Assembly: GCA_002841515.1 (NCBI GenBank)
Contig: PGZW01000001.1
Span: forward strand, 1 to 44,719
Source of the DNA: Firmicutes bacterium HGW-Firmicutes-19
GTDB lineage: Bacteria > Bacillota_I > Bacilli_A > Erysipelotrichales > Erysipelotrichaceae
Direction: 5' to 3'
DNA length: 44,719 nt
How positions within the stretch are numbered: the stretch's first letter is position 1; the number at the start of each line of letters is the position of its first letter. Positions 6,214 to 26,602 of this stretch are shown here, piece by piece. The notes beneath the pieces are model-generated. The model made no database searches, had not been told where the DNA came from, and saw only the letters and a list, made by a program, of their open reading frames with translations. A program made the position numbers and the translations under genes.

Positions 6214-7410
6214 TCAATTAACTGTAATGTATGTACTTACGGTTTTTCCGTCACCAGAAACCGTAATTTTCCAACTGCCCGCAGACGTGCGTACGCCAAC
6301 TTTCCACGACCAAGATACTTTGCCATCTGCACCGGCAATTTCTGGTTCCAATCCTGCAGCTGTACTAGGTCCTGATTTGTAGTAAACGACTATTGAATAC
6401 TGTTTCCCTGCTTTACCCTGAACTACGATCGTTGCAATTTCTCCAGGGTTCACTGGAGTTGTTAATGAAATTACCTTCAGTGAATATGTTGTCGGAGGAT
6501 TTGGGGTAGGTGTCGGAGTCGGTGTAGTAGCAGTAACTTTTACGACGGTTACGGATAACGTCTTTACAATCGTACCTAGCTGATAAGTAACCAAATAAGT
6601 TCCCGCAACTTTTGTATCAACTTTATTAGTTATGACTATGTTTGCATTATTTCTGTCTTCCGAAACTAAATAGCTCTTGGGATCAAATGAACTGCCCTGA
6701 TTTATCGAAACTGAGGTCTTTGTTAGAATTGGAGAAACATCCTTCACAGTTACACTTAACGTTTTTGATGCTGTTCCTGCTGAATATACAACTTGGTATG
6801 TTCCAATCTTACTTGTATCTACGTTGTTCTGAATGGAGATTTTGGGACTGTTGGGAAAGTTTCCAGCAAGATATGTTTTCGGACTAAAGGTACTTCCTAA
6901 ATTTATTGTGATTGCACTCTGAGTCAGAACAATGTCAACATTTTTCACAGACACGTTCAAAACTTTTTCAATACCGCTAAAGGAGTAAACAACAATATAC
7001 TCTCCAGCTTTGCTTACATCGACATTGCTAACGATTTTGATGTCATTGTTTTTGTCTTCACTCGAAATATAGTCTTTAGGATTAAATGTACTGCCCGATT
7101 CTATAATGATATTCTGACTGGTCAATGTCACCGGATCACTCAAGACAACCACTTTAAGTATCGCCTCAGATCCTCCGAGTTTGTAAACTATCTGATAATT
7201 TCCAGATAATTTTGTATTCGCAGTGTTTAATATCTCAACTTTTTCATTTGTCCGAAAGGCCTCTCCCAAATAATCCATGGGATTGATCTCTTGCCCCTGA
7301 TACAGTTGAATTTCTTTTTGAGTCAGTTCGATGCTTTCTGAACAACCAAAAAGACCAATCGCCAAAAAGAGAATCAAAATCGACTTAATGAGTAAATGTT
7401 TATTATTCAT
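6214..7410 (-). CDS. Lipoprotein with four tandem ~70-aa Ig-like repeats and a C-terminal ~90-aa domain
   Basis: ORF track 6214..7434. Lipobox LFGCSES. The repeat pattern LTQ..I.I..GS.F.PK.Y......N..I.I.N.VD.SK.G.Y.VVY.......L.V.V occurs four times, followed by a TPTPTPTP linker. ATG 7408-7410 is preferred. Confidence 0.75.
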   Translation of the reverse strand: MNNKHLLIKSILILFLAIGLFGCSESIELTQKEIQLYQGQEINPMDYLGEAFRTNEKVEILNTANTKLSGNYQIVYKLGGSEAILKVVVLSDPVTLTSQNIIIESGSTFNPKDYISSEDKNNDIKIVSNVDVSKAGEYIVVYSFSGIEKVLNVSVKNVDIVLTQSAITINLGSTFSPKTYLAGNFPNSPKISIQNNVDTSKIGTYQVVYSAGTASKTLSVTVKDVSPILTKTSVSINQGSSFDPKSYLVSEDRNNANIVITNKVDTKVAGTYLVTYQLGTIVKTLSVTVVKVTATTPTPTPTPNPPTTYSLKVISLTTPVNPGEIATIVVQGKAGKQYSIVVYYKSGPSTAAGLEPEIAGADGKVSWSWKVGVRTSAGSWKITVSGDGKTVSTYITVN

Positions 7411-7570
7411 GATTTTCCCCACGTGTACTCCCACACACTTTCTGTGAATATTATATATTATTTTACGTATTTTGATAATGCTTGTTAAGATATTATTAAA
7501 GAATTTGTTAACAATTTCTATTACGAACTTATTAAATCAAAATGAATTAATCAACGATTTCTGATCAGCT

Positions 7571-8356
7571 TTATAGGTAAATGATGCTATTTATCCTCAA
7601 ACTGTCGTACATCGTTGATAATCCAAATCTTTCATCAAGATTGACGATGACATAGGCTAAGCGGCTGATATGCAGGATCTGAGGGATAATAATCCCCTTA
7701 AACCACTCAGATGCAGCTTTGTCGGTTTCACTGTACTGAAAGACTTGTATGAGCAGACATCCGGAAACAACCGTGTTGATAAACTTTGTGTCAAAAAGTA
7801 TATCCGAACCAGACGATGAGTGCACACTGATCTGAATGCAGTAATAACCGTCCTGATATCGACCTCTTTTCATATTAAACGCCCGGATATAAGGAAATAT
7901 TCTTTCATTGTTTCCTCCCACCATTAAGCGCGGCTTGCCGTTAAACTGAAAGTCGTCATCAACCGCAAGTACTTTCGTCTTCTCATAGTCACGGACATCA
8001 TAGGGAAATCCTCTGAGTACAAAGAGCGATGACACATCCATGATATGCCGGATATCCGTATAGAACTGCGTAGTCTCTTTTAGATAGTCGATGAAATGAT
8101 TGGCATCGATGGCCGTGAATGTCGGAGTTTGGCGCAGAGGTTTGAGGCGCAGCTGGTAGAACAGTAAGTTCAATTGGTGGTCAAAGCGTGGATATGATCT
8201 CAAATCTCCAACGCAGGCAACCAATAAGTCCAGTGAGTCATGATCGATCATGCAAGGCATGATGAACAACCCATCCTCACTTATGCGCTTATACTCCATA
8301 GGAATGACATCTTCCAACTCAACAAACTCGATTTTAAAATTGCTTCTATAAAACAT
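7571..8356 (-). CDS. Hypothetical protein (261 aa), no family recognised
   Basis: ORF track 7571..8386 (TTG). ATG 8354-8356 has AAGGGG 6 nt upstream and overlaps the stop of the upstream ORF by 11 nt. This stretch is GC-rich: 51 G+C in my hand count of 8101-8200. Confidence 0.6.
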   Translation of the reverse strand: MFYRSNFKIEFVELEDVIPMEYKRISEDGLFIMPCMIDHDSLDLLVACVGDLRSYPRFDHQLNLLFYQLRLKPLRQTPTFTAIDANHFIDYLKETTQFYTDIRHIMDVSSLFVLRGFPYDVRDYEKTKVLAVDDDFQFNGKPRLMVGGNNERIFPYIRAFNMKRGRYQDGYYCIQISVHSSSGSDILFDTKFINTVVSGCLLIQVFQYSETDKAASEWFKGIIIPQILHISRLAYVIVNLDERFGLSTMYDSLRINSIIYL

Positions 8357-8696
8357 GGGATACCCCTTGCTCATCCACGATCTCAAGCAATCGACCTTTT
8401 AGGTTTAGCCAGACCGTTCGAATACTCATGGTTTGAGGTCTGTTATACATGGGGTCATAGTTGATAAACAGGTAATCCGGATGAACCATGACATAGGAGT
8501 CTGAACTTACCTTATGCACATACCCATCCACGATCAACCGTAACATAAGCAGCTGACTGTCAACCGGAACGTCCAAATTGTAAATAACGTTTCTGTACCT
8601 CACTTTTCCATGATAGCGGACATGGCGGCTGTGCATCCAGTCACACCAGTTGTTCTCAACGGCTTTGTAAGGCTTAGGGGTGTAGTTAATCTTCAT
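8346..8696 (-). CDS. Hypothetical protein (116 aa), no family recognised
   Basis: The internal ATG 8694-8696 of track ORF 8346..8852 is preceded by GAGAGGAAAATC (strong SD). The track start at 8852 is a TTG with no SD. Product MKINYTPKPYKAVENNWCDWMHSRHVRYHGK.... Confidence 0.55.
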   Translation of the reverse strand: MKINYTPKPYKAVENNWCDWMHSRHVRYHGKVRYRNVIYNLDVPVDSQLLMLRLIVDGYVHKVSSDSYVMVHPDYLFINYDPMYNRPQTMSIRTVWLNLKGRLLEIVDEQGVSHVL

Positions 8697-8765
8697 GATT
8701 TTCCTCTCTTTCTTAAACACGACACAAAGGAAAAGCATGAAGCCCTCCCTATCTGTCGCGTTAAC

Positions 8766-8827
8766 GCTGGAATTGGCACCGTACATAACGCCGGTTGCCG
8801 AGTGGTCATTGAGCCAGTCTCTCACAC
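8766..8827 (-). repeat. Leader direct repeat, copy A (62 nt)
   Basis: An ungapped hand alignment with 8919-8980 gives 47/62 identities. The invariant core is TCATTGAGCCAGTC (plus strand). Confidence 0.7.
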
Positions 8828-8856
8828 TCTCTTGATAGGAATTTACATTCAATTGT

Positions 8857-8890
8857 CAAAGAACAATAAAGCCCCCTATCCACGATAGGG
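8857..8890 (-). terminator. Hairpin plus U-rich tail between the two leader repeats (terminator/attenuator candidate)
   Basis: The minus strand reads CCCTATC-GTG-GATAGGG (7-bp stem, 8874-8880/8884-8890) followed by GGCTTTATTGTTCTTTG. A TTGACA hexamer (8854-8859, minus strand) follows directly. Confidence 0.4.
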
Positions 8891-8918
8891 AGCATAGTAA
8901 ATAATGCTTGCCTATCGT

Positions 8919-8980: not shown

Positions 8981-9182
8981 AGTCAAAATATAGCGTGGGT
9001 GTTAAACAAAAGAAACATCAATAATCTAGAAAATAATTAAATTCTTAACAAAGCAAATGATTGTGTTGCATTAAGGACAAGTACTTGTTCATTTGGCTTA
9101 AAGAAATTTTCTACTAGCATTCTTGAATACTGTCAATTTTCAAAAAAGTGAATGGAATCATTTACGAAGAAAAATTGATCTA

Positions 9183-10478
9183 TTATACACGTTCAATCAA
9201 TTCTTTTATTTGCTTTAGCTCCTCATGAAAAACATTGTTTATATAACTAAAGCAATCATAATCATTAATTCCCAGCACTTTTTTTATTCTCTTATATGCT
9301 TCGTGGGATTCACATGACTCAACAATCTCTTTTACTTGGTGAATTTTATAAGGTTCTAGACCACAAAAACCACTTAAAAATCCAGAGCTAGAGTGAGACA
9401 AATCAGAACATATGAACTTCTCAATATCTTTAAAAGGCAGTAGATGAGTATATTCATTTTCTGGTAATTCTCTTATTATTGATTCCGCTTGATCACCATC
9501 AAAAACAAATATAAATTTAGAATTGATTTCCTCAAAACATGGTTTTCCTATATCAAGTATAGATTTTAATAGAGACTTCATTTTACCAGAACCACCAACT
9601 TGAAAAACATTTAGTGAAGGCCAAGTAAAGTTTATAAATGATTTGATTAACTCATCTTCGACGAAAATAACATTATGGGATTTATTATATAGGCTATATC
9701 TTTCAGAAAAAAAGTTGTAAAACTCCTCTAAGCTCAGTTCGATGTTTTGCTCTCTATAATTAGTTGAAAGAACAATTTTAAAAGGGCATCTAAAATCTTT
9801 AAGATAATCAATAATTTCAAGTGCATTTGTAGTCATAACTATTTCATTTTTATTTACTGAAGATGAGAAAATCATAAGTTTTGTAATATTTTCAAGTGCT
9901 TTTGTCGAAATGTAATTGAATGGTTCATCAATGAATAGTTTTTGATCTTTTCGCTTAAAAAGCAATAAAAACAGGGAAATTAAGTATTGTTCACCAACAC
10001 CCATCTCTAGAGTTGAGTACTTTTCTCCGTTAACTAATTCCACATCAAAATAGAAGTAATTCGAACCGTAGATGATTTCCAATGAATCTTTGTCGAATAA
10101 TTCACCAAACAAGTTTTTATAGTTTAACTTCTCACCAAAATTATCGCTCAAAAATTCGTTGATATCCAGTACTTTGTATTTTATCGTCTTATATAATTTG
10201 GCAGTCACTAAATTTATGTGATTGATTTCGTTATCTAGAATCTCAGCGGTTTGTAATTGGTCTAAATATTTCTTTCTATGAAAAGCTTTGGCAAAAACAA
10301 ATGAGGCAACAGGATAAGTTGATAAAACTAATGTCTTTTTTTCAGCTGTCTCATGTTTGTACTTTTCCGTTATTTTAATTGTTTTCCCAGAACCATTATT
10401 ACCAAGTATAATCAATGGACAGGAATTCGTATCAATTCTTGATGAATAGTCCAGTACTCTGTTATTACGAAAATTCAT
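9183..10478 (-). CDS. ABC-type (OLD/AriA-like) ATPase fused to a C-terminal Toprim (OLD/DUF4435-like) nuclease domain
   Basis: 431 aa. Walker A ILGNNGSGKT, signature-like MGVGEQYLISL, Walker B KLFIDEPFNYIS. The Toprim Glu lies in VIFVEDELI and the DxD in FVFDGDQAE, ~50 aa later. The ATG overlaps the upstream DUF262 gene by 14 nt. Confidence 0.75.
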   Translation of the reverse strand: MNFRNNRVLDYSSRIDTNSCPLIILGNNGSGKTIKITEKYKHETAEKKTLVLSTYPVASFVFAKAFHRKKYLDQLQTAEILDNEINHINLVTAKLYKTIKYKVLDINEFLSDNFGEKLNYKNLFGELFDKDSLEIIYGSNYFYFDVELVNGEKYSTLEMGVGEQYLISLFLLLFKRKDQKLFIDEPFNYISTKALENITKLMIFSSSVNKNEIVMTTNALEIIDYLKDFRCPFKIVLSTNYREQNIELSLEEFYNFFSERYSLYNKSHNVIFVEDELIKSFINFTWPSLNVFQVGGSGKMKSLLKSILDIGKPCFEEINSKFIFVFDGDQAESIIRELPENEYTHLLPFKDIEKFICSDLSHSSSGFLSGFCGLEPYKIHQVKEIVESCESHEAYKRIKKVLGINDYDCFSYINNVFHEELKQIKELIERV

Positions 10479-11580
10479 CGCTAATGAAATTGTAGTTTTT
10501 ACTGAAACGAGCTACTTGGGCATACGTTTCAGTCTCATATTTCTTAATGATTAATTCGAAATCCTCGGCATTATTACTCAGAATTTTTAGAATTGCTTGT
10601 CTTATAAGTATCGAGGGATAATCAGTTGAAGCATACATTGTATACTCATCAAAAATTGATTTTAAAGATTTTCCTTTGTATTTGCTGTTCTGACTCACAA
10701 ATTTCAAGATTTCAATTAATCTGTTTTCATCAATCTCCACTGCTGTCAAGAAAATAAGAACAGAATAAATTGTAGCTCGAGAATATTTAATTGCTGAATT
10801 TGATTGTAACAAATGACAATTTACTTTAAAGAACAGTTCAATTGCATCCTTAACTTTTTTAATGGTTCCTGATTTAAATTTTGAGTTGTTTCTATAAATC
10901 GAACTCAACATTTCTGATGTAATCTTTTTATCAATGATCTGATATTCAATTGTATAGCACACTTTCAAAAGAATATCTTCATATATCTTTCTAACATTAC
11001 TAAACCCTAAGGTGCCTAAAGAAGCACCACTCTCAATGAAAAATGCATTCAAATCACTTATTTGAGTTCGAGTTTCACCAATATGTGCATTTCTTTTTTC
11101 CGAAGTTGTAAGAGTCATGGGTGAATTAAATCTTTGAAATAATTCTGCAATTTCCTTCTCTGTTGCATCAGAAATCTCGTAAACAGGAATTGGTGTAGCT
11201 AGAACTTTATCATAAATAGCTTGATAAAAATCATCGTCTTTTGCTCTTGATTCTATTTGAAGAAATGTTAGATTGTGTAGTTTTACAATTGCATTATTTT
11301 TAGGTTCAAATCGCGAATTTACCCTCAAAGTTCCATCTATAATAAACTCCTTGATCGCAGTAATCCTCTGTAGACCATCTAGAATATCATACTTATTTTC
11401 ATTATTTAGAAAAATAACTGGTGGTATTGGCCAACCACGGATAATTGTGTCAATCAATTTCCTTTTCTTCTTGTTATCCCAAACTTCACCCCTTTGGAAG
11501 TCGGCATCAAGGGATATATTATTCCTCCTTATGCGGTTTGTTATACTTTCAACATCAAATATTGTCATATTTTGTTTCAT
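10465..11580 (-). CDS. DUF262 (ParB/GmrS-like NTPase) domain protein lacking a recognisable DUF1524 nuclease half
   Basis: ORF track 10465..11688. ATG 11578-11580 is preceded by GGGAGAGAAAG. N-terminus: DADFQRGEVWDNKKKRKLIDTIIRGWPIPPVIFL...YDILDGLQRITAI (DUF262 FQR and DGQQR-type motifs). No His-Me/HNH motif seen in the C-terminal half. Confidence 0.8.
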   Translation of the reverse strand: MKQNMTIFDVESITNRIRRNNISLDADFQRGEVWDNKKKRKLIDTIIRGWPIPPVIFLNNENKYDILDGLQRITAIKEFIIDGTLRVNSRFEPKNNAIVKLHNLTFLQIESRAKDDDFYQAIYDKVLATPIPVYEISDATEKEIAELFQRFNSPMTLTTSEKRNAHIGETRTQISDLNAFFIESGASLGTLGFSNVRKIYEDILLKVCYTIEYQIIDKKITSEMLSSIYRNNSKFKSGTIKKVKDAIELFFKVNCHLLQSNSAIKYSRATIYSVLIFLTAVEIDENRLIEILKFVSQNSKYKGKSLKSIFDEYTMYASTDYPSILIRQAILKILSNNAEDFELIIKKYETETYAQVARFSKNYNFISDEFS

Positions 11581-12031
11581 CTTTCTCTCCCATCTAAATA
11601 GCTTAGTTATAAAGAAACATTTCGACTTCAAAACATAAAACATGTTGCCATTAACTAAAACACAAATTGTTTTAGTAATCATTTTCAAATCTTAACTCAA
11701 CCTCTACTATATCGAGGTGATGATAAGATCAATACTTTGTTTTAGATCATAAACTTTTTTCAATAGTTTGAGCATTGATTGTTGAGCATATAAAGTTGAA
11801 AGTCAATGAACTGCCTAACAATGCACTCATTTATGTTCACATTAGTTAAAGACAGTCTTATAAAGAATAATCCTCAAAACAATGTAGGCATCAAATCTAA
11901 AAATTGCAGATGTAGATTTATACTTCATGTTATGATGATATGTCAAAAAGATCTATTTAGTTTATAATTTTACAGATATCTAATAGAAACAACCCCACTT
12001 TACTTTAAAACACATCAAAATATCATCGTAT

Positions 12032-12328
12032 TTAGAGATTTGAGGAATCTTTATCAATAATCGATATCATTGCTATCCCAAAATATGATGTACTAATTGT
12101 AGTAAATAGTCTTATTGCATCTAAATCAAAATCCTCGTACATAAATCCACTTATCAAAAATCCGATTATAATAGACGTGACAAAGAAACGAAATGCAGTA
12201 TCCAATACACCATTATCAACAGAGAAATTCTTAGCAATGTATTCACTAACTTTTATAAAACTATAAACAAGTATAACCCCAAAAGACCAAAAAATTCCAT
12301 CAATTATTGCAGAAATACTCTCAGACAT
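12032..12328 (-). CDS. Small hydrophobic protein (98 aa, ~3 TM), doubtful gene
   Basis: The ORF translation is strongly hydrophobic, but there is no Shine-Dalgarno before ATG 12326-12328. It is separated from its neighbours by 171 and 343 nt. Confidence 0.35.
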   Translation of the reverse strand: MSESISAIIDGIFWSFGVILVYSFIKVSEYIAKNFSVDNGVLDTAFRFFVTSIIIGFLISGFMYEDFDLDAIRLFTTISTSYFGIAMISIIDKDSSNL

Positions 12329-12499
12329 AGTACAAACTGTATGATCCAGTTTTGGATTATACTTCTCCTTTCAAGAAAACTGACAGTAATAAATTCCTAC
12401 CACTCAAGCATACATTTAATTGCATCAATTTAAATTTCAGAATTATTTCTAATTATCAATACATTGAAGTCCCAATCTTTATAAGTCCTCAAAGTTCAT

Positions 12500-13081
12500 C
12501 TATTTACAAACCAAACAAAAGAAATTAATCCATTCTGTCATTTCCGTGTTTTTTTTTGAATCTTTAGTTATGACGACACTGCTAATTTTCAAAAAATCTC
12601 TCATTGGCTCAAAAAAAGTAAACTCATCTTGGCTAAAGCAAGTAAAATCTCTCCCTCCTTCTGAATAATCATCTCCCACTTTAAATGATGCATATAGTAC
12701 CCCTCCCTTTCTAAGTGCTCTTTCTAACCTTCTAAACACATTCGGTAAATCTTCTCTAGAAACATGCAGCAACGATGCACATGCCCATATCCCATCGAAT
12801 TCATCCACATAATCCAAATCCTCAAATCTCAAAAGTTTCGTCATTTGTCCTGTATATTCAGTACTTAATCGAACCATCTGTATTGATGAGTCAAACGCGT
12901 CGACCTCATATCCCTTTTGTAAAAATACTTTGGTATCACGTCCAACACCGCAACCAGCATCCAATATTCGTGCTCCAGGTTTTAAGTATGCCAAAAATTT
13001 GCTGATCATTTCGGACATATCGGCATCGATCGTGTTTTTAAAGTATTCATCATAATTCTCATCGTAGTAGTTCTTGGTCAT
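12500..13081 (-). CDS. Class I SAM-dependent methyltransferase (small, Methyltransf_11/25-like)
   Basis: 193 aa. Motif I ILDAGCGVGRDT, post-I acidic DAFDSS, then GIWACASLLHV. The ATG overlaps the stop of the upstream helicase (ATGA, 13078-13081). Confidence 0.8.
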   Translation of the reverse strand: MTKNYYDENYDEYFKNTIDADMSEMISKFLAYLKPGARILDAGCGVGRDTKVFLQKGYEVDAFDSSIQMVRLSTEYTGQMTKLLRFEDLDYVDEFDGIWACASLLHVSREDLPNVFRRLERALRKGGVLYASFKVGDDYSEGGRDFTCFSQDEFTFFEPMRDFLKISSVVITKDSKKNTEMTEWINFFCLVCK

Positions 13082-15501
13082 TTAACCTCACAATAAGACT
13101 TCTTATCAAGTCTTAAATCAATAAACTCGTTTCTTCTAAACTGTATGGCGTCTTGAATAAAATAAATGGCTTCACTTCTTTTAATGTCTTCACCTAAATC
13201 TATAATGATTCTCATGCCAGTATCCAAAGCTTCAAATATATCGGAATGACTTAAACTCAAGAAATGGACGGGATTATCCTTGGCCATTTTCCAAACTTCA
13301 TTATCTGAGTAATCATGAAATCTCTTTCGAGACTCAACATTTTGAATGTCTATGAAATTTCTTTGATTTGCATAGAAATTTCTAAACGATTGAATGATAT
13401 CCTCTTTACTTATTATATAGCGGAAATGTCCTTCATTAAAGAACGCTAACAAGATAGGGACTTTATATAAGCGACTAAAACTCGTGGATTCAATCATCTC
13501 AATGAATTTCTTTGTTTCCAGATCTAACTCCAATTTGAAATCAGAATCTGATTTTTTCAAGAACTCATAATAGTTTTTAAACGGATTTTTACTACCGAAA
13601 CTTTTGATGAAAGCATACTCGTCACTAGTAAGTGAGTTATATAGTTCTACTCTGGTTGGCACATATCTTAGGTCTCTCTTACATCGCCAATAGTAATCAA
13701 CGATTGTATCTGATTGTTTTCGTGTCGCTATCCGAGACTTCTCAATGATATCTATTACTTTAGGATCAAAGGATATCTGACAATTCAATGGAAGGTTATC
13801 TTCTTTAGCGACTATGTCCGTAATCCGGCCTGTTGAACCCACACTATATTTATTCAAAAACACTTGAGGAATCATTTCAACCTTTTTATAGTTACCCACA
13901 AAGTCTAAAATTTTCAAGTCCATCTTGCCTTCTGATTTCCTTAATCCACGACCAAGTTGCTGAAGAAAGACGGTGATAGATTCTGTTGGTCTTGCCATCA
14001 AAATCATGTCTACTGCCGGTACATCTAATCCCTCATTAAACATATCAACTGTAAAAAGAATTTCTATACTTCCTTTTTTAAGGTTCTCCACCGCAATCTC
14101 TCGGTCTAGCAGATGCTTGCGACCTGCTTGACTATGAACCGTATGAGCAATCACTCCATGATTTTGAAAGTACTCTGCCATCATTTCCGCATGATCGATT
14201 CCAGAACAAAATGCCAATGTACGTTTTCGGTAATGGCTCTTGTAGTGGGTAAATATTAGGTCTGCTCTTTTACCAATCATCAATGCCTTCTCTAAGTCCT
14301 CAGATACATATTTACCATTCTGATAGCGAATCGTATCATAATCAACTGTGAAGTCATAGATCCCATAGTACTGAAACGGAGAAAGCAAGTCACGATTGAT
14401 TGCAGAAAAGAAATCCAAATCATACGCAACGTTATAATCGCAAATTTCAAATACATTTTTACGGTCCATTCTATGTGGCGTTGCAGTTAATCCAAGAAGG
14501 AATTTTGGTTTAAAGTAATCAACTATCTTCTTATAACTAAACGTCGCAGCATGATGAAACTCATCAATAATAACATATTCGTACTTCAATGGATCTATTT
14601 TTTCAATATGTTCCGTCCGGGATAATGTCTGAACAGACGCAAATAAAACATCCTTGCAATCGTAGATACCATCATAAAACCTGCCAATATCATCAGATTT
14701 GCGTATTGCATGGAATGTTCGGATGGCTTGTTCAAGAATTTCCTCACGATGAGCCACAAACAAAACACTTGAGAAACTTAGAGAATCAAAAGCAGCGAGA
14801 GCAGTCTTCCCTACACCTGTAGCCACAACACACAAAGCTTTATCATTTCCATCTTTTCGCGTTTTCTCAAGTTTTAATAATGCTTCCTTCTGAGCGGTGT
14901 TTGGGACAAATTCGCCTTCAACAAATTCCAATTCTTCATCAATTCGAGCCTTACGTAAGGAGTTGAAATGCTTATTGACCTTTCGATCATATCGCTCATT
15001 GAAAACATATCCAGAAGCATAATCATCAACGATTTCTTCAGTCAAGACAACTGACTCATGATTATAAAGTTTCTCGAATTCATCACACAAGTGCTTATAA
15101 CTCTCAAGGTCATTTTTCTCTTCAATACAGTAATTCCACTCCACACCATCAACCAATGCTGACTTCGATATATTGGAACTCCCTAAATAAACTCTTCCAC
15201 CTTCGTCGCTCTTAAAGAAGTATGCCTTCGGATGAAAACTTGGTGACTTGCCATTATATAAATGAACTGTTCCTTCAGGTAGCATGTAAAGTAGTTTATA
15301 CAATGCCACAGGTTGAGTGATATCTAGGTATGTACTGGTCAAAACTCTTACAGGAATGCCATTCTCTACACAATGAACAATCATTTCCTCAATTAACTTT
15401 AATCCTGAATAACGGACAAAAGATACAATGAAATCAACACCATTTGTATCATTGTAACTTGATAATGATTCAACTAGTTTACTAGTAACTGCTCTTCTCA
15501 T
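13078..15501 (-). CDS. PLD(HKD)-nuclease / SF2 (ResIII-type) helicase / C-terminal DUF3427-like domain fusion protein
   Basis: 807 aa. HKD-like FHPKAYFF...LGSSNISKSAL. Helicase motifs: I VVATGVGKT, II VIIDEFHHA, III LGLTATP, VI QQLGRGLR. The ~250-aa C-terminal domain is assigned to DUF3427 from my memory of this architecture only. Confidence 0.85.
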   Translation of the reverse strand: MRRAVTSKLVESLSSYNDTNGVDFIVSFVRYSGLKLIEEMIVHCVENGIPVRVLTSTYLDITQPVALYKLLYMLPEGTVHLYNGKSPSFHPKAYFFKSDEGGRVYLGSSNISKSALVDGVEWNYCIEEKNDLESYKHLCDEFEKLYNHESVVLTEEIVDDYASGYVFNERYDRKVNKHFNSLRKARIDEELEFVEGEFVPNTAQKEALLKLEKTRKDGNDKALCVVATGVGKTALAAFDSLSFSSVLFVAHREEILEQAIRTFHAIRKSDDIGRFYDGIYDCKDVLFASVQTLSRTEHIEKIDPLKYEYVIIDEFHHAATFSYKKIVDYFKPKFLLGLTATPHRMDRKNVFEICDYNVAYDLDFFSAINRDLLSPFQYYGIYDFTVDYDTIRYQNGKYVSEDLEKALMIGKRADLIFTHYKSHYRKRTLAFCSGIDHAEMMAEYFQNHGVIAHTVHSQAGRKHLLDREIAVENLKKGSIEILFTVDMFNEGLDVPAVDMILMARPTESITVFLQQLGRGLRKSEGKMDLKILDFVGNYKKVEMIPQVFLNKYSVGSTGRITDIVAKEDNLPLNCQISFDPKVIDIIEKSRIATRKQSDTIVDYYWRCKRDLRYVPTRVELYNSLTSDEYAFIKSFGSKNPFKNYYEFLKKSDSDFKLELDLETKKFIEMIESTSFSRLYKVPILLAFFNEGHFRYIISKEDIIQSFRNFYANQRNFIDIQNVESRKRFHDYSDNEVWKMAKDNPVHFLSLSHSDIFEALDTGMRIIIDLGEDIKRSEAIYFIQDAIQFRRNEFIDLRLDKKSYCEVK

Positions 15502-15594
15502 GTTCTTTCCTCATTAACTCCAATTAAAAGTTGTTTTGACTTATGTTTTAGAATGCCTGATTGCTAACCAAAGTAGTAACTTATTTTAAACAAA

Positions 15595-17034
15595 CTATTG
15601 AATATAATAATTTAGCACAGTGATGATTCTTTGATTCATACTCTCACTAATTTTTTTTCGTATATTCCTCTTATTGTTGTCATTTATAAAGATATCTACT
15701 TCGTACTTTTCGTCCATAGAAAGAGAATCATATGATGCCCAAAACATTTCAATTTCATTACTCAATGCTGACTTTGTTCTATTTATAATAAATTTCTCAG
15801 GAAGAATGAGAATTCTTTTAAACTCATCAACATTTCCTCCAAATGCATGTTTGAAATAACTAGACTTTGGTCCAACAACACCATGTGTTGGAATAAGAAT
15901 ACATTGAATTGCTCTTAAGAACTTTTTGTTCCAATTCTTACCAACGTACTTTCTGTCTTTTGAATTTTCACCAAAAATGGGTGTATATTTCATAGGAAAT
16001 GACCAAATTGATGTTTGGATTTTTCTATCAGAAAATTCATTGTTTAAATCAATATTAACTTTTAATCTAGTATATAAGTCTTCCGGAGTATCGTCTAGAT
16101 TAAAGAGAATGTAATTAGAACAACTCTTAATATTCTCATCAGCTGCCATTCTCATCACTTCCGAATAAATTCTTACAAATTCATTATTAGCATGATCAAA
16201 TGCTACTCGAAGAGGATTTATCTCGATCTTTCCTAAAAGAGACATTAAGTTACGATTTGAGTATAGTAACCTTGCATCTAGTCCTTGATTGAAATCAATT
16301 ATTTTTTTTAATTTTCGGGTTCGTCCATTTCTATTCACTAGTAGACTCTTATTATTTCTACCAAATCCGCATTTAATAAGGTCCTCAACAATGTCTGCTA
16401 TGTTTTTTGATGCTAATACATTGTTGTCCATCATCATCATATATCGCTTTTCACCAAATTTTGAATCAATATCCTCTTTAACTTTGACAATATCCAAATA
16501 ATCGCAATAAACGGGTTCAATTTGTGGAACTGCACAAAAAACACACTTTCTTATACAGCCATGGGTGCTTCGCAGAAAATATGCATCAAAACTTGGATAT
16601 ACATAACTGAGATAAGGGTTTTTATCCATTGATATCATGTCATAATCTGGAGTTAAGTTGTCGACTACAATATCGTCTTCTCCCAAAATACCAGGTTTAT
16701 CAATTAACCCTCTAATAATATTAATTTTTTTGAGTTCATCAATTTTCTCAAGCTCTTCAAACATAATTGTCGCCATTGGACCACCAATGTAGATATCACT
16801 TAATGATGAAACGAAACTTTTATAATAAAGAATTGTTTTAATTGTGATTTGAAAGTGAAATGTAAAAACCGTTGATATGTAAATTCTGTCCCAATAGATT
16901 TTTGTTAGCTCTTTATTAATACCTTTCGTAAAAAAAACTTCATCGTTTTTTGATTTGTGATACGTTGAGATTTTCATCAATCCCAAGGGTGGGAGTTTAT
17001 TTTTATAATTAGGTTCAACAAGTAGAATTTTCAT
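15595..17034 (-). CDS. Radical SAM enzyme with N-terminal B12-binding-like domain (COG1032/class-B-like)
   Basis: ORF track 15595..17085 (GTG, forming a GTGA overlap with the upstream stop). ATG 17032-17034 has AGAGGAAAAATC upstream. The N-terminus MKILLVEPNYKNKLPPLGLMKISTYHK is typical of the B12-binding-like Rossmann domain. The CX3CX2C cluster motif GCIRKCVFC is encoded at 16534-16557. Downstream: MMMDNNV and IDFNQGLDARL. Confidence 0.85.
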   Translation of the reverse strand: MKILLVEPNYKNKLPPLGLMKISTYHKSKNDEVFFTKGINKELTKIYWDRIYISTVFTFHFQITIKTILYYKSFVSSLSDIYIGGPMATIMFEELEKIDELKKINIIRGLIDKPGILGEDDIVVDNLTPDYDMISMDKNPYLSYVYPSFDAYFLRSTHGCIRKCVFCAVPQIEPVYCDYLDIVKVKEDIDSKFGEKRYMMMMDNNVLASKNIADIVEDLIKCGFGRNNKSLLVNRNGRTRKLKKIIDFNQGLDARLLYSNRNLMSLLGKIEINPLRVAFDHANNEFVRIYSEVMRMAADENIKSCSNYILFNLDDTPEDLYTRLKVNIDLNNEFSDRKIQTSIWSFPMKYTPIFGENSKDRKYVGKNWNKKFLRAIQCILIPTHGVVGPKSSYFKHAFGGNVDEFKRILILPEKFIINRTKSALSNEIEMFWASYDSLSMDEKYEVDIFINDNNKRNIRKKISESMNQRIITVLNYYIQ

Positions 17035-17081
17035 GATTTTTCCTCTATATCTATCATAATTTAATAAAAGCAAATTGTCGA

Positions 17082-18086
17082 TCACATTCCAAGTTTTTTA
17101 GCCAAATCATCAATGTTTGATTTTATTTTCTTAATCTCATAAATGCATTTATTTTTTTGCTCATTATTCATGCTGGTTATTTCATCGATAATGTCCTTTT
17201 CGGCAGTAAAATCTTTAAACTTGCTTAATCGTTCAATAAGAGTACTTGTTGCTCCTGCCAATTCTGCTTTCTCGAATGCATCATCGATTGTATATGAGCC
17301 TTCAACGAACTTCTCAATTATTTTCTCTTTCTTATTTCCTTTAATTTTAAGAACAGGAACTAGTTTTTGTCTAATATCTATTGCATTAGCTATCTCTCCA
17401 CTTTTAATTTTCTCTACAACTGCATTATCAAGCCCAATATGTAAGCCCCTAGCTTTCTTAATATGAATAGATTTGAAATACTCATCAAAATAGCTCCATT
17501 TTTGGCTATCGCAGATTTTGTTGTCTATCATAAATGAATAGATATCTATTAGTTGCTTAACACGCTGCTCTGACAAACCCATTTCTTTAGCCATATTTAA
17601 AGCGGATATCTCATGCTTTTTGTGTCTTCTATACAAGTAACCGGCTTGTTCAAAAGGTGCCCAATCCTTACGGCTAATTATGTGATACTGCCCAAGTAAC
17701 ATAAATATGTCTTTTTCATCAATATCATGGGGAAGAATCTGGCATCTAATTTTCCCCCATTTAATAGGATCTTTTCTAGCTAGTTTTCTATAGGCAGCTA
17801 ATCTACTGTTTCCTTCGAAGACGACAAAGTCAATATCCCTTACTATGACCGGATCAATTAAACCGCCATTTGCCTTAATTGACTGAACCAATGAGTTTAC
17901 ATGTTCCATTTCTTCAAGTTGTTCTTGTATATCTTGTTGTGATGGCTCAGATTCAGAATTTAATCTAAGTAATGAAAAAATTCTGGGGTTCTCAGGGTAA
18001 AACAATAATTTCTCTTGCTCTAGTTCTGTGTGCTTTACAGTTATCTTCTTGCCAGAAATAACCAATTCTCCATAATATTCACTCAT
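17082..18086 (-). CDS. ParB/Srx N-terminal-domain protein, paralogue B
   Basis: ORF track 17082..18107. ATG 18084-18086 (MSEYYGEL) has GGGGGA upstream and overlaps the SNF2 stop by 8 nt. Motifs: YPENPRI, SIKANGGLIDPVIV, VFEGNSRLAAYRKL (GxxR box), DWAPFEQAGYLY. Confidence 0.75.
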   Translation of the reverse strand: MSEYYGELVISGKKITVKHTELEQEKLLFYPENPRIFSLLRLNSESEPSQQDIQEQLEEMEHVNSLVQSIKANGGLIDPVIVRDIDFVVFEGNSRLAAYRKLARKDPIKWGKIRCQILPHDIDEKDIFMLLGQYHIISRKDWAPFEQAGYLYRRHKKHEISALNMAKEMGLSEQRVKQLIDIYSFMIDNKICDSQKWSYFDEYFKSIHIKKARGLHIGLDNAVVEKIKSGEIANAIDIRQKLVPVLKIKGNKKEKIIEKFVEGSYTIDDAFEKAELAGATSTLIERLSKFKDFTAEKDIIDEITSMNNEQKNKCIYEIKKIKSNIDDLAKKLGM

Positions 18087-19566
18087 TTGCTTCATCCCCC
18101 ATTTCAAGTATTTCGTGAACTATTTTCCCATAATCGTAATTCGAGTTTTGCTGGTATGTTTCTAATGTAATATCACCTTGAGCTAATTGTGCTGCAAGAT
18201 ATTTACTCTTTATAAGTGCGTCAATCCACTCATCAATAGAATCCTTCATAATTAAATTATAGATATGACATGTTTTAGTTTGAGATATTCTATGAATTCT
18301 ATCCTGAGCTTGTAAATAGTCATCTAGACTTAAATTCCGGTCATAAAATATAGCATGGTTTGCGACAGTTAATGTTAATCCTTCTTTAGCAGAGGCTGGT
18401 GTAGCTATTAGTACTTTAGCATCATTGTCAGTTAGAAATCTTTCCACTGATTCATTTCTGTCAGCTATGTTCATTCCTCCGTAAATCTTTACTGCTCCAT
18501 AATCTTTAAACTCACTTGTCAACCACTTAACATTATCAATGAATGTTGTCCACACGATTACCTTTTCACCTTTATTTATTATAGTTTGCACAATATTCTC
18601 AAGGATCCGAAATTTACCAGGTTGGTCGTAGTAACTTGAGTCGATTAATTTGGGATTGGATGTCACTTGAATCAAACGTAGCAGTCTTTTTAAAACCGAT
18701 TCAGAACTATCCTCTTTTAGTTTGCCGTCTTTCTTAATTACAATACGTAGTTCTTTCTTAATTTGCTCATACATATCCTTCTGATAAAACTCCCAATCGC
18801 AAGTAATTACATGATACTCTTTGTTAGGCAATTCAATAATTCCGCTTCCTTTTGTCTCTCTAACTGAAAATCCTGATATTTTCGAGAAAATTATGTTGAT
18901 TGAGTCTTCGAAATCTTTCCTGGTTTCAAGATTATCAATATAACTATTTTTCAGATCCGCACTCTTCCTAAAGTAATCGAAATCATCACCCAAAGATTTG
19001 CCTTTATCAAGAAAATATATTTGAGCCCAAATATCGTATGGTCTGTTTGCTACAGGTGTTCCAGTCATAATAATTCGTTTCTGAAACAAATCTGACAAAG
19101 CAAACAGTGTTTGAGTTATTTTTGACTCGGGGTTTTTCATTTTCGCTGATTCGTCAATAATAATCGCAACATTCCTTGTCTTACAAAACAGTTCCAGTCG
19201 ATCTTTCTCACTTACAAGTACTTCAAAATGTGTTAATACCAGTCGAGCAGGACTATTAAAAACATAAAAATTCCCAGCTAAATTTTGTGATAAGACTCGA
19301 GGTTTCATGAAAGTATGATTTTTAAGTTCTTTTTCCCAATTGGCTATTAAGCTCTTTTTGGTCAGATAAATCACAGTGTCAATGATACCGTTCTTTAACC
19401 AATAAAGCATAATGTCAATTGCTATTTTTGTCTTGCCTAGCCCTTGTTCATGGAAAATTGCTGCATAGGGCAAGTCCTTGACAAACTCAACAGCTTGTTT
19501 CTGGTAAATGAAAGGTTCAAACTTCGACTTAAGATTAGGTTCTCTTTTTAATGATATCTTCTGCAT
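18079..19566 (-). CDS. Minimal SNF2-family ATPase/translocase
   Basis: 495 aa. Motif I HEQGLGKTK, motif II IIIDESAKMKN, motif III MTGTPVANR; C-terminal lobe LTVANHAIFYDRNLSLDDYLQAQDRIHRISQT. No extra domains. Confidence 0.85.
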   Translation of the reverse strand: MQKISLKREPNLKSKFEPFIYQKQAVEFVKDLPYAAIFHEQGLGKTKIAIDIMLYWLKNGIIDTVIYLTKKSLIANWEKELKNHTFMKPRVLSQNLAGNFYVFNSPARLVLTHFEVLVSEKDRLELFCKTRNVAIIIDESAKMKNPESKITQTLFALSDLFQKRIIMTGTPVANRPYDIWAQIYFLDKGKSLGDDFDYFRKSADLKNSYIDNLETRKDFEDSINIIFSKISGFSVRETKGSGIIELPNKEYHVITCDWEFYQKDMYEQIKKELRIVIKKDGKLKEDSSESVLKRLLRLIQVTSNPKLIDSSYYDQPGKFRILENIVQTIINKGEKVIVWTTFIDNVKWLTSEFKDYGAVKIYGGMNIADRNESVERFLTDNDAKVLIATPASAKEGLTLTVANHAIFYDRNLSLDDYLQAQDRIHRISQTKTCHIYNLIMKDSIDEWIDALIKSKYLAAQLAQGDITLETYQQNSNYDYGKIVHEILEMGDEANE

Positions 19567-19567
19567 A

Positions 19568-19975
19568 TCAAAACTCCAAAATTCTAAGTTCGATTTTGCT
19601 ATCGGTTGAATACTTAAGTTTTCTTTTGAAGATATTGTTCACTATAGGTTTGCAAAAATACGGAACAGATAAAACTATCATTGATTTTCCATCGTGAATT
19701 TTACAAGTTGTTAGATAACTCTCATATTGAGAAATACTGTGAGATCTTTCAATATCTTTCGCGCTCTTAGCCTCACCAATCACCAATAAACCATCTAGTG
19801 GACGGTATGCATATAGATCTGGGAAATAACCACCAAAAGTACATTTGGGCTTATTGTATTGCTCATATCCAGGACAATCAGCAAGAATGTAACTTTCGTC
19901 ACCGTGAAAGATATTGAGTACAACCCAATCTTTCATCTCTTTGACCAATTGCATGTGCTCTATAGACTCTGACAT
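19568..19975 (-). CDS. Small PD-(D/E)xK-fold nuclease candidate
   Basis: 135 aa. FPDLYAYRPLDGLLVIGEAKS gives PD...(11 aa)...GEAK, the restriction-endonuclease-fold signature. It abuts ParB-like A (TAA|ATG) and ends 1 nt before the SNF2 ATG. Confidence 0.55.
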   Translation of the reverse strand: MSESIEHMQLVKEMKDWVVLNIFHGDESYILADCPGYEQYNKPKCTFGGYFPDLYAYRPLDGLLVIGEAKSAKDIERSHSISQYESYLTTCKIHDGKSMIVLSVPYFCKPIVNNIFKRKLKYSTDSKIELRILEF

Positions 19976-20998
19976 TTATTCATTACTCAATTCATTATAC
20001 AGAGTCTTAATCTGTTCATGCAGTTCCATAATAATGGTATATCGTTGTGGTTCGTTACCACTTTTTAAAGCAGTAAATTCCTCAAAAGGCAGTGATCTAA
20101 TTTTCCTTATAGCTTCAAGAATTAAGTTTTCAAGTGATGATCTTTCTAGTCCAGGTTCTGATGGCACTACACAGAATTTCCTAGCATCCTTGATACTTTT
20201 GCCATCCTTAAGAAATTCTTGCTTTGCTCTTTGGTTATCTAGAATCACAGGCAACTCACGAATGTCAGCAATAGGTTTAAACTTGTTATCAATTACCCAC
20301 TGAGAAAAATCTTTAAGGGTGAACCCATGTTTCAGAATTGAATGTTGTATAGAATCTCTTAAAACTTCCCTAAATGCAGAAAACTTATTCTTTTCAAACT
20401 CATCATCACTCTCTAGAAGTGGTCTATAGTGTTCTTCCATGAGATTATACGCTCTAATATAATCTTGAACATCAGATTTATTCCCTCCACAAAAATCAAC
20501 AATTTGTGCCATTGTCAAACATTCATCTTTATAAAGAGAATTTAGATATTTAGCTTTACTATATGGATCCCAATCACGTGGTCCAACTAAGTGAGCTTGC
20601 AATCTTATTGCATTTATCATCTGCTGTTCTGTATCAGTATAAACTATTGCTGGAATAGAGGACCAATCACCTTTAATATTATCCTTAAGAAATTCTCGGT
20701 AAATCTGTACCCGCGTATTACCTTCAACTACAGTAAATGTACCACTATTACTATCGTAGTTTACAATAATTGGATGGATTATACCCCCATTTGTTCTAAT
20801 TGACTCCTTCAAACTTGTGTATGTGGTACCTGGGGATGTCCCACTGTTGCTGTTCGATACAAGTGCTAGTTTAATCATTTCTTCACTGATTTCATCGTTA
20901 TACATTTCTAAAATCGATTTGATTCTTGGATTGTCACGATCCAACTGCAGATCTGACACTTGTAGCATTTTAAACTCTGTTTTGACTTGATATGTCAT
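19976..20998 (-). CDS. ParB/Srx N-terminal-domain protein, paralogue A
   Basis: 340 aa. AAGGAGG SD. Motifs: LQLDRDNPRI, SIRTNGGIIHPIIV, VVEGNTRVQIYREF (GxxR box), DWDPYSKAKYL. Collinear motif order with 17082-18086. Confidence 0.75.
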   Translation of the reverse strand: MTYQVKTEFKMLQVSDLQLDRDNPRIKSILEMYNDEISEEMIKLALVSNSNSGTSPGTTYTSLKESIRTNGGIIHPIIVNYDSNSGTFTVVEGNTRVQIYREFLKDNIKGDWSSIPAIVYTDTEQQMINAIRLQAHLVGPRDWDPYSKAKYLNSLYKDECLTMAQIVDFCGGNKSDVQDYIRAYNLMEEHYRPLLESDDEFEKNKFSAFREVLRDSIQHSILKHGFTLKDFSQWVIDNKFKPIADIRELPVILDNQRAKQEFLKDGKSIKDARKFCVVPSEPGLERSSLENLILEAIRKIRSLPFEEFTALKSGNEPQRYTIIMELHEQIKTLYNELSNE

Positions 20999-21016
20999 TT
21001 GTTTTCCTCCTTAAAT

Positions 21017-22180
21017 TTATGTTAGTTTTCTAATCCAATCATATATTTCTTCCCAATTATCGACTGGGATGATATTTTTAGGCATATCCATTTTTTGATT
21101 ATACAATTGTTTCATTAAAAATACGATTCTGCAAGTTTGACTAAGTCTTATTGCATTATCTAGATTATCTTCGACGAAAAATTCGATTTTCTTTTCTGCA
21201 CTCAAAATATACCTGTCCTTTATTAGAGTATTATCTTTTTCAATAGTCAAATCATCATGCTCAAAATCATTGCACTCTAGCCACCTTTTGGTTAACTCAT
21301 CGACGTTGAACGTAGCACTCTTCCAGTCTCTCTTAGTAAATATATGTACTTTATAATTTAGGTTGGTTCTAATCTTTGCTAAGTAGGTCGAAGATTTATT
21401 TTTGACCGGCATCTTAGACCAGTATTCTTTCGTTAAGAAAACACTTTGTTCTATGTTCTTGGTTACCCTTTCAATACACTTGTGTACTGGGATTTCGACT
21501 ATCTCATCGTGCACAATGTTTAGACCTGTGTGATTTTCATTTGCAATATCACAAAAGTGGTATGTGTGTTCATTTAATACACCATCAATATCAACTCCGA
21601 TTATTTTTGAATACATATCACTAGCCTCCTCCGCGCTTTTGCAAATCCCTCTGTATGCATAATAATGACCTAAAATAAGTATTATCCATGCTATAAAATA
21701 CCAATAAAATTCTACTTGTATTACGTTGCCAATTAATCTCATTGCGCCATAGACTAGATAAGACGAATTTGCTGTTCCAGTCGCTAACACAATCCAGATA
21801 AACTGCAAATGATCTACATATGATGGTTTATTTTTTTGAGTAGGTAAAACCGAATAATAAAGTATTTCATCATTACTCAAATCTGATTTGTTATAATGAT
21901 ATGCTCTCATAGAATTCACTACTCGAGCGTACAATATCGCTTCGTTTCGGAGTTGATATAAGTAAAAGCTAGCGAATGTTGCAACTAGCCCAACAAGTAA
22001 TAAAGCATAAGATAAAATTGTTCCTTCATTATCTTTTGATAAAAGAAAGAAAGGTGCAGCATATATTGCCAATAGGTATTGGAAGAAAGTAGTAATTCTT
22101 TGAGAAATGCTAAAATGTGATTGGGCAATCACTTCATACTCCTTTAGGAAGAAATCAGACTCTCGAGCTTTATCTCTCAT
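21017..22180 (-). CDS. Membrane-anchored HAD-superfamily phosphatase, NT5C (5'(3')-deoxyribonucleotidase)-like
   Basis: 387 aa. The N-terminal ~170 aa has 4-5 hydrophobic helices. C-terminal domain: IIGVDIDGVLNE (DxDxV), HIFTKRDW (motif II), LTKRWLECNDF (K..WL), FFVEDNLDNA (motif IV-like). AAGGAG SD. The ATG overlaps the upstream DUF2075 gene by 11 nt, and there is only an 18-nt gap to ParB-like A. Confidence 0.65.
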   Translation of the reverse strand: MRDKARESDFFLKEYEVIAQSHFSISQRITTFFQYLLAIYAAPFFLLSKDNEGTILSYALLLVGLVATFASFYLYQLRNEAILYARVVNSMRAYHYNKSDLSNDEILYYSVLPTQKNKPSYVDHLQFIWIVLATGTANSSYLVYGAMRLIGNVIQVEFYWYFIAWIILILGHYYAYRGICKSAEEASDMYSKIIGVDIDGVLNEHTYHFCDIANENHTGLNIVHDEIVEIPVHKCIERVTKNIEQSVFLTKEYWSKMPVKNKSSTYLAKIRTNLNYKVHIFTKRDWKSATFNVDELTKRWLECNDFEHDDLTIEKDNTLIKDRYILSAEKKIEFFVEDNLDNAIRLSQTCRIVFLMKQLYNQKMDMPKNIIPVDNWEEIYDWIRKLT

Positions 22181-24062: not shown

Positions 24063-24136
24063 GCAATTCCCCCACTTATATTGTGAAACATCTAAAATGA
24101 TTATACAACAATATACTTAAATCCTAAACCCTTAGT

Positions 24137-25828: not shown

Positions 25829-25932
25829 TGCTTATACCTTTCTTTTTGATAAAAATTTGACTTTCGAAATAAATCAACTGTTCTAATTATTAACAATTTG
25901 ACTGTACTTAACCCATAAAAATCGTATAACTG

Positions 25933-26448: not shown

Positions 26449-26602
26449 ATGTTTCCCTCATAAATCATTATCTTCATTCTAACATAAGTATCCATGAGTA
26501 TTTAATAAAAAATAGAAACTCCATTGTATCAAGAGTTCCTATTCAAATCATCGATCCGGATTGCTCCATCAACGAATCCAACACGATTACCCGGCGTTTG
26601 AA

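Follow-up and report, generated by a model that had tools for sequence, protein, structure and literature searches.

What do two overlapping genes do together when one encodes a DUF262 protein without a nuclease domain and the other a protein in which an ATP-binding cassette (ABC) ATPase is fused to a Toprim nuclease domain? The question is raised by positions 9183–11580 (minus strand) of a 44,719-nucleotide stretch of contig PGZW01000001.1 from Firmicutes bacterium HGW-Firmicutes-19 (Erysipelotrichaceae), the whole of which is termed the window here, and in which a reading of the letters without database searches (the sequence-only reading) had proposed an unusual two-gene defence candidate. 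Our analysis indicates that the locus is probably an anti-phage module made up of two coupled genes and no others, akin to Menshen and the OLD family, and that the single locus first described is one member of a widespread family.

Two overlapping genes and their products

The list of open reading frames (ORFs) and direct reading of the sequence place both frames on the minus strand at the coordinates originally proposed, with the overlap of 14 nucleotides (nt) and the motifs FQRGEVW and DGLQRITAI in gene 1 and GNNGSGKT, FIDEPFNYIS, FVEDE and FDGDQ in gene 2 all present. Gene 1 (10465–11580) encodes a 371-amino acid (aa) DUF262 protein (ParB/Srx-fold NTPase) that is NsnA-like and lacks a nuclease domain, as judged from the ORF, Pfam, PADLOC, an AlphaFold2 model and matches in the Protein Data Bank (PDB); its likely start is the ATG at 11578–11580, with a Shine-Dalgarno-like GGAGAG 4 nt 5' of it (11585–11590), and its stop is the TAA at 10465–10467. 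Gene 2 (9183–10478) encodes a compact 431-aa fusion, in which an ABC ATPase is joined to a Toprim domain, with the architecture of the OLD family (ORF, AlphaFold2, Foldseek). Where gene 1 ends and gene 2 begins, the frames share the 14 nt ATGAATTTTCGTAA (10465–10478), and the two genes are translationally coupled.

The DUF262 protein had been held to lack the DUF1524/His-Me half, and this was borne out. Pfam GmrSD_N (DUF262) matched residues 13–167 (11080–11544; E = 4e-21), a region containing the motifs QR..W (residues 29–34), DGLQR (residues 68–72) and ELFQRFN (residues 146–152), while no DUF1524, HNH or other Pfam nuclease family matched gene 1 at E ≤ 0.1. In the AlphaFold2 model (predicted local distance difference test score, pLDDT, 90), DSSP assigned helices only to residues 141–362 and no strands past residue 137; because this region is purely helical in the model, a beta-beta-alpha His-Me finger is excluded, and no histidine is conserved in the C-terminal half of the family (29-sequence alignment). 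The all-helical C-terminal domain (residues ~169–362; 10495–11076), defined from DSSP of the model and from the NsnA profile, is ParBDB-like, and residues E161, R163, N164, R197 and R327 of the helical part are invariant in the family alignments. Across 69 non-redundant intact pairs from species-representative genomes, metagenomes and four viral contigs, on which the conservation counts given here are based, the QR..W, DGxQR and ELFxRxN motifs are invariant, with Q71 and R72 unchanged throughout and the sole exception of L70, which is Gln in 62 members.

By sequence, the best PADLOC match of gene 1 was NsnA of Menshen (7e-27; residues 4–275 on profile positions 47–314 of 385), which spans the DUF262 domain and part of the helical C-terminal domain, followed by PD-T4-2_A (2e-15). 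The closest solved structures to the gene 1 model were BrxU (the best match), Noc/ParB and SspE, and a PDB sequence search with gene 1 found nothing. Homologues of gene 1 form a clear family of ~370–400 aa; a 632-aa relative (P0034) has sigma-70 region 2/3/4 domains fused to its DUF262 domain.

The description of the 431-aa product as an OLD-like ABC-ATPase/Toprim fusion was upheld by separate PADLOC scans of its two parts, by the AlphaFold2 model with Foldseek, and by its motifs. The C-terminal 185 aa alone matched ATPase-Toprim_I-B (retron type I-B effector) at 3e-8, and the N-terminal half alone gave weak matches to the AriA, NsnB (8.6e-4), mad3 and PtuA ATPase profiles. The model was confident (pLDDT 87), and its top PDB matches in Foldseek were to full-length proteins, namely Thermus scotoductus OLD (6p74), the retron-Eco8 effector (9lp9_B) and GajA (8u7i_A), at E ~1e-6 and probability 1.0, with ABC nucleotide-binding domains and SMC heads ranking next. 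The ABC-ATPase domain (residues 1 to ~258; 9705–10478), to which these weak profile matches and the ABC and SMC-head folds correspond, contains the Walker A motif GNNGSGKT (residues 26–33; 10380–10403), whose K32 is kept in 68 of the 69 pairs, a signature-like MGVGE (residues 159–163; G162-E163 in 69/69) and the Walker B motif LFIDEPF (residues 180–186; 9921–9941), whose E185 is present in 69/69. At the H-loop position the protein has TTN (residues 216–218), Asn replacing a His that is found in 63 of the 69 family members, the other six having Asn. The Toprim domain with its helical tail (residues ~266–431; 9186–9683) was located from the ATPase-Toprim_I-B match and from the alternation of strands and helices at residues 268–346 of the model, and its acidic residues do align across the family: E274-D275 within FVEDE (9654–9659) and D327 of the D327-G-D329 motif within FDGDQ (9492–9500) are kept in 69/69, and D329 in 68/69. 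One C-terminal His is likewise kept in 69/69.

Sequences like that of gene 2 are rare, with only 16 matches at E ≤ 1e-3 among 1.84 billion cluster representatives searched exhaustively with phmmer. A word-indexed homologue search returned only gene 2 itself, a PDB sequence search returned only ABCE1 (at ~0.008), and a profile search built from the family alignment strayed into generic ABC-F and transporter ATPases after ~20 matches. NCBIfam supplied no useful name for the locus.

The pair as a family and its compact Bacillota clade

The DUF262 alignment was scanned against one genome per species (185,579 genomes) and gave 238 confirmed matches, sparsely and patchily distributed among Bacillota, Actinomycetota, Pseudomonadota, Bacteroidota, Planctomycetota, Myxococcota, Verrucomicrobiota, Chloroflexota, Hydrogenedentota and Ignavibacteriales. 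The DUF262 family thus had a match in ~0.1% of the species representatives; the pair was present wherever this was checked, and such loci are now unannotated or half-annotated. Eight loci from protein-database look-ups and the best 80 of the 238 genome-scan matches were examined together (88 loci), and in 78 of them an ORF matching separate ATPase and Toprim profiles began within a few bases of the DUF262 stop, most of the other ten being contig ends or broken frames. Each gene 1 homologue that was looked up on its contig has a gene 2 homologue directly downstream, in otherwise unrelated surroundings. The pairing of a DUF262 gene with an OLD-like gene, which the sequence-only reading had noted at one locus, recurs in 69 non-redundant loci, with an unchanged gene order. 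In IMG/VR, the partner gene was found in 4/4 contigs with a true family member as against 0/76 generic DUF262 viral loci, which served as a specificity control, while plasmid and phage collections yielded only distant DUF262 relatives (<32% identity, partial coverage).

The frames overlap in ~57 of the 69 pairs, in 34 of them by 4 nt (nearest-start-codon estimates), and pairwise identities among the gene 1 proteins correlate with those among their gene 2 partners (matrix comparison; Mantel r = 0.89, a value reached in 0/999 permutations of the 69 pairs). A third conserved gene was sought and not found, with no flanking protein cluster occurring in more than 7/69 loci and no Pfam family in more than 3/118 immediate neighbours of the pair. 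Large genes upstream of the pair at about a dozen loci were considered as a third component and rejected, being mutually unrelated (type ISP, HsdR, HerA-like, TrwC relaxase, DUF3686 and a secreted protein). Strict synteny, overlapping frames, matched divergence and the lack of a conserved neighbour therefore define a cassette of exactly two genes that moves as a unit.

Elsewhere, the surroundings of the pair include type I, type III or type ISP restriction-modification genes, Mrr, methylases, transposases or a relaxase; the copy in Caryophanon latum lies between rpsI and a ParA/Mrp-like gene, and another copy is found in Micromonospora. On one proviral contig (L096), a second and weaker DUF262-family ORF is present a few hundred bases downstream of the pair (7139–8248). 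More distant, HEC-04/IbfA-like ATPase-Toprim relatives of ~515 aa (P0077, P0074) stand alone, with no DUF262 neighbour, and one distant standalone relative has a recognisable OLD-like TOPRIM domain. One standalone, HEC-04-like ATPase-Toprim gene (517 aa; L089, 516–2069) is taken to be prophage cargo without a DUF262 partner, since phage portal and large terminase genes adjoin it. Cultured carriers of the pair are available in Caryophanon latum DSM 14151, Streptococcus mitis OMI669, Pseudomonas migulae HY-2 and Photorhabdus khanii NC19.

The window copy is an atypical, compact member of a rare Bacillota clade. Most gene 2 partners are of a long form (470–500 aa), and six pairs, all from Bacillota, have partners of 409–432 aa; these are L001, L003, L005, L006, L007 and L010, of which L001, a 99–100% identical copy on a 192-kb metagenome contig, stands for the window pair, and their sources are the window, a metagenome-assembled genome, Caryophanon latum, Streptococcus mitis and two metagenome contigs. 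In compact gene 2 proteins the hairpin region at the N-terminus is missing, as is part of insert 1. Two substitutions, His to Asn at the H-loop of gene 2 and DGQQR to DGLQR in gene 1, coincide in exactly these six pairs and in no others among the 69, while the Gln-Arg of DGxQR is retained; mutation of the corresponding residues of HEC-06 abolishes defence (10.1101/2024.01.29.577857). Linked changes in both nucleotide sites are as would be expected if the sites communicate, and so hint at such communication, although simple shared ancestry within one clade could also account for them. With Asn at its H-loop, the compact-clade ATPase may work more like a slow switch operated by nucleotide binding.

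Genomic context, proposed mechanism and alternative explanations

The pair is situated on the margin of a stretch of low GC content (28–38% at ~9–27 kb, 9001–27000, against 39–45% across the remainder of the window), a pattern that fits an island acquired by horizontal transfer. All of the island genes discussed here are on the minus strand. At 12500–15501, a methyltransferase dependent on S-adenosylmethionine (SAM) (TehB/Methyltransf_25 type, also matching PADLOC mad2) overlaps by 4 nt a protein that combines a PLD nuclease with a superfamily 2 helicase and matches the PADLOC type IV mREase at 1e-93, the two forming a separate two-gene unit beside the pair. A co-directional block at 15595–20998 encodes a radical-SAM-like protein, two ParB_N-like proteins (PDC-M38A-like) and a SNF2 helicase (ZorD/DpdE-like); the ParB-like and Snf2 combination loosely recalls lactococcal AbiR as described in PMC13064643. 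Two adjacent Schlafen-group-3 helicase proteins (Pfam SLFN-g3_helicase, 1e-104 and 2e-62), with AbiO/Nhi-like PADLOC matches, are encoded at 22170–25828. This island, with its type IV-like PLD-helicase, SNF2 and Schlafen-type helicases and ParB-like genes, together with the restriction-modification and mobile neighbours found elsewhere, provides the defence context of the pair. Membership of the methyltransferase/PLD-helicase unit and of a 98-aa membrane protein in the same system was rejected, as these genes occur beside the pair nowhere but in the window and the near-identical L001; because the island neighbours are absent beside the pair elsewhere, they were treated as separate cargo.

On the downstream side, a terminator-like hairpin with a T-run (8871–8893, minus strand; consensus scan only), ~290 nt past the gene 2 stop, probably ends the transcription unit of the pair and sits just upstream of the SAM riboswitch that opens the next unit. 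This riboswitch (RF00162, 75 bits; 8746–8841, minus strand) lies directly downstream of the pair and apparently places the ORFs behind it (the later part of 8346–8852, and 7571–8386) under SAM control; these minus-strand ORFs gave no Pfam or PADLOC match. A promoter scan of the locus gave a result no better than that from shuffled sequence.

The mechanism we propose assigns the roles of sensor and switch to gene 1, whose DUF262 NTPase has a ParB fold and is followed by a helical, ParBDB-like DNA-binding domain, and those of transducer and effector to gene 2, which unites an OLD-type ABC ATPase and a metal-dependent Toprim nuclease in one chain. Both proteins would be made in fixed proportion from the overlapping frames and then form a complex. 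The DUF262 protein would engage foreign DNA, and binding or hydrolysis of nucleoside triphosphate (NTP) at the DGxQR site would alter its state; the altered state would drive ATP-dependent dimerisation or rearrangement of the ABC heads, which in turn would license cleavage of nucleic acid at the Toprim site (E274, D327, D329). Either DNA or tRNA might be cut, and the outcome might be direct restriction or abortive infection. Solved and characterised relatives fall into both groups: GajA, the retron-Eco8 complex and a class 1 OLD of Vibrio are reported to cut DNA, and P2 Old and AriB to cut tRNA.

Several observations weigh against this account. The defence role of the pair is deduced from homology and context, and at least one OLD-family protein, the archaeal Cran1, is described as having a role outside defence, in the cell cycle (PMC12796447). 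Co-variation of the two proteins could stem from joint inheritance alone and not from physical contact, and many copies adjoin housekeeping genes and not obvious islands. For gene 2 of the window, whole-protein profile matches are weak (AAA_21, 0.0035; AriA, 1e-3), and the TM-scores of its Foldseek matches are low (0.2–0.26), which would be consistent with a different domain packing and inserts. Of the families that the sequence-only reading had named for profile checks, DUF262 was detected with confidence and AAA_21 only weakly, while Pfam OLD-like_TOPRIM and DUF4435 gave gene 2 no match at E ≤ 0.1; the Toprim assignment is therefore carried by one PADLOC profile, the fold search and the motifs.

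Other explanations were weighed against the same evidence. It is conceivable, though we consider it unlikely, that the pair is a modification-dependent (type IV-like) enzyme for direct restriction, in which the DUF262 protein reads modified bases (glucosyl-hydroxymethylcytosine, hydroxymethylcytosine, deazaguanine and the like), while DNA is cut by the Toprim domain in place of DUF1524. The DUF262 domains of GmrSD, BrxU, GrwAB and TgvAB sense modified DNA, BrxU is the best structural match of gene 1, and a type IV-like PLD-helicase is its neighbour in the window; by sequence, however, gene 1 is nearest NsnA and not GmrSD, in the view of the Menshen authors the ParB-DUF262 domains of that system may be directed at genomes without modification (PMC12065111), and the sequence gave no sign of a modification-reading pocket. 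This explanation is in any case a special case of the sensor-switch mechanism and not a true alternative to it, and specificity of the pair for modified cytosine in particular is pure conjecture. About equally doubtful is a guard or toxin-antitoxin-like arrangement in which phage sensing falls to the ATPase-Toprim protein (as with AriA, which senses Ocr, or HEC-04, which works alone), the DUF262 protein restrains it or senses the NTP level, holding the nuclease inactive until a phage infects, and infection is aborted through cleavage of tRNA or of bulk nucleic acid. Such an arrangement would suit the architectural relatives that work without a DUF262 partner (HEC-04/IbfA and the standalone P0077 and P0074), the abortive-like phenotype of IbfA, and the OLD-family effectors, which in many cases cleave tRNA and abort infection (PMC12445682 and PMC12409363), but the invariant NTPase motifs and DNA-binding-type helical domain of gene 1 exceed what a simple inhibitor needs, and the DUF262-first order and coupling are those of Menshen, where NsnA is modelled as the sensor.

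A role outside immunity, in which a ParB-like NTPase and an SMC/ABC-like ATPase-nuclease would help to maintain, segregate or repair DNA, whether that of the host or that of a mobile element, appears improbable. PMC12065111 discusses how ParB proteins load SMC or ParA ATPases and regulate them, Cran1 offers a cell-cycle precedent within the family, and some copies lie among housekeeping genes, as in Caryophanon latum; nevertheless, the distribution is sparse and patchy for such a function, the surroundings vary with no conserved neighbour, the window copy lies in a low-GC island, other copies lie near restriction-modification genes, transposases and a relaxase or on (pro)viral contigs, and the nuclease site is intact and conserved. 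That an orphan DUF262 protein and a HEC-04-like standalone nuclease with independent functions are merely adjacent is scarcely credible: HEC-04-like proteins can act alone, but frames that overlap in most pairs, strict synteny in every intact locus examined, matched divergence and linked substitutions in both nucleotide sites all argue for a joint function, and the standalone relatives are a more distant group. A coupled two-gene defence module thus remains the explanation we favour.

Comparison with known systems

Menshen (Millman et al. 2022; Li et al. 2025, PMC12065111) is the closest system. It comprises three genes, NsnA-NsnB-NsnC, where NsnA has DUF262 and ParBDB domains, NsnB is an OLD-type ABC ATPase with DUF3696, and NsnC joins an inactive PIN domain (inPIN) to an effector that is sometimes of Toprim fold; NsnA is predicted to sense and NsnB to transduce, and a DUF262 protein lacking DUF1524 is thus already coupled there with an OLD-type ABC ATPase (PMC12065111). 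The pair resembles Menshen in its first gene, which combines DUF262 with a helical ParBDB-type C-terminal domain and no DUF1524 (long forms score 116–132 bits with the NsnA profile), in the OLD-type ABC ATPase gene directly downstream, in the Toprim-fold nucleases (DUF4276, RloB) found among Menshen effectors, and in the predicted logic from sensor to ATPase to nuclease. It differs in having two genes, with the nuclease fused to the ATPase and neither NsnC nor inPIN; the C-terminus of gene 2 is a Toprim domain, with no DUF3696 in the Pfam scan, and the gene 2 family matches NsnB only around the signature and Walker B (17–64 bits), being nearer to the HEC-04 and retron I-B ATPase-Toprim profiles. 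The Menshen survey would have missed these loci because its collection rule required a third gene. The sequence-only reading had seen here a GmrSD-like enzyme whose nuclease half was replaced in trans by an OLD-like protein, an interpretation that is largely right and supported in part: a nuclease-free DUF262 protein with an OLD-like partner is what was found, but its nearest kin is NsnA. Because gene 1 is closest to NsnA and Menshen already pairs DUF262 with an OLD-type ATPase, a two-gene Menshen relative within the OLD family, with Toprim fused to the ATPase, is the nearest description and the better frame.

The one-chain architecture of gene 2 is shared with HEC-04, a single-gene ATPase-TOPRIM system that protects against T4 and T5 and requires its Walker A lysine and E/D/D residues, function being lost on mutating K62 or E319/D375/D377 (10.1101/2024.01.29.577857), and with its homologue IbfA, a single-gene ATPase-TOPRIM defence with an abortive-like phenotype (PMC12111858). 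Long-form partners (~475–495 aa, against 494 positions of the HEC-04 profile) have HEC-04 as their best or near-best PADLOC match, up to 2.5e-35, yet these relatives score 44–130 bits, far below family level, and gene 2 of the window had no HEC-04 profile match even at E ≤ 10. Considered as spacing only, without alignment to HEC-04, the distances from the Walker A Lys to the Toprim Glu, from there to DxD and within DxD are 257/56/2 in HEC-04, 257/55/2 in the long-form P0064 and 242/53/2 in the window. HEC-04 and IbfA act alone without a DUF262 partner, whereas members of the present family are always paired genomically.

OLD proteins are classed by partner, with none in class 1 (P2 Old, Ts OLD), UvrD/PcrA in class 2 (Gabija), a retron reverse transcriptase in class 3 (e.g. 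Eco8) and a split AriA/AriB in class 4 (PARIS) (PMC11464382). Gene 2 shares with this family the N-terminal ABC ATPase (Walker A, Walker B and signature) and the C-terminal Toprim with Glu and DxD, but the partner here is a ParB/DUF262 NTPase and ATPase and Toprim are fused, a combination unlike classes 1–4; neither a helicase nor a reverse transcriptase is conserved near the pair in the 69 loci. The window protein is also much shorter, with a remodelled N-terminus and the H-loop Asn. With the type IV restriction and PT-sensing enzymes GmrSD, BrxU and SspE, in which a DUF262 NTPase regulates a nuclease (PMC10952713), the pair shares the QR, DGxQR and FxxxN motifs followed by a helical domain, and the idea of an NTPase gating a nuclease; it differs in lacking DUF1524/His-Me in gene 1 or in any conserved neighbour, and in that its nuclease is a Toprim domain accompanied by a dedicated ABC ATPase. 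PD-T4-2 (Vassallo et al. 2022) likewise has a DUF262-only first gene, but its partner is a HEPN protein (PMC10952713) and not an ATPase-Toprim, and gene 2 gave no match to PD-T4-2_B or HEPN in Pfam and PADLOC. The Dazbog DzbA/DzbB profiles in PADLOC matched neither protein at E ≤ 0.1.

The sequence-only reading could name no system for this pairing, and none was found: it is not described in PADLOC v2 or in the defence literature searched (Menshen, HEC, PARIS, BREX diversity, WASA Vibrio, GmrSD clusters and lactococcal Abi), a coverage outside which the ABC-ATPase survey of Krishnan et al. 2020 lies, where the pair may already have been drawn. PADLOC v2 is taken to have no dedicated profile for the pair, since all its scores are far below family level, and current defence finders would at most label a long-form gene 2 as HEC-04. 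A review makes the general remark that the DUF262 proteins found together with 'a nuclease, TOPRIM or ATPase' are possibly related families (PMC10952713). We tentatively suggest, as a possibility short of an even chance, that the pair is an undescribed OLD partner class, or 'two-gene Menshen', present in at least ten phyla and a few proviruses and unreported as a system by current defence finders, in which a ParB-type, NTP-dependent DNA-sensing switch directly gates an ABC-ATPase/Toprim protein, their nucleotide sites communicating. If so, the NsnA-type DUF262 sensor would be a portable module, serving either the three-gene Menshen or a fused ATPase-Toprim effector. With two proteins and all catalytic residues identifiable, the pair offers a simple system for studying a question shared by Menshen, GmrSD and SspE, namely by what route the sensing of DNA is relayed from a ParB-fold NTPase to a nuclease. 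The domains and the logic of the pair are known from the systems above; what appears new is the combination of partners, conserved, widespread and, as far as checked, unnamed, which if correctly read would raise the kinds of partner known for the OLD ATPase-nuclease family to five.

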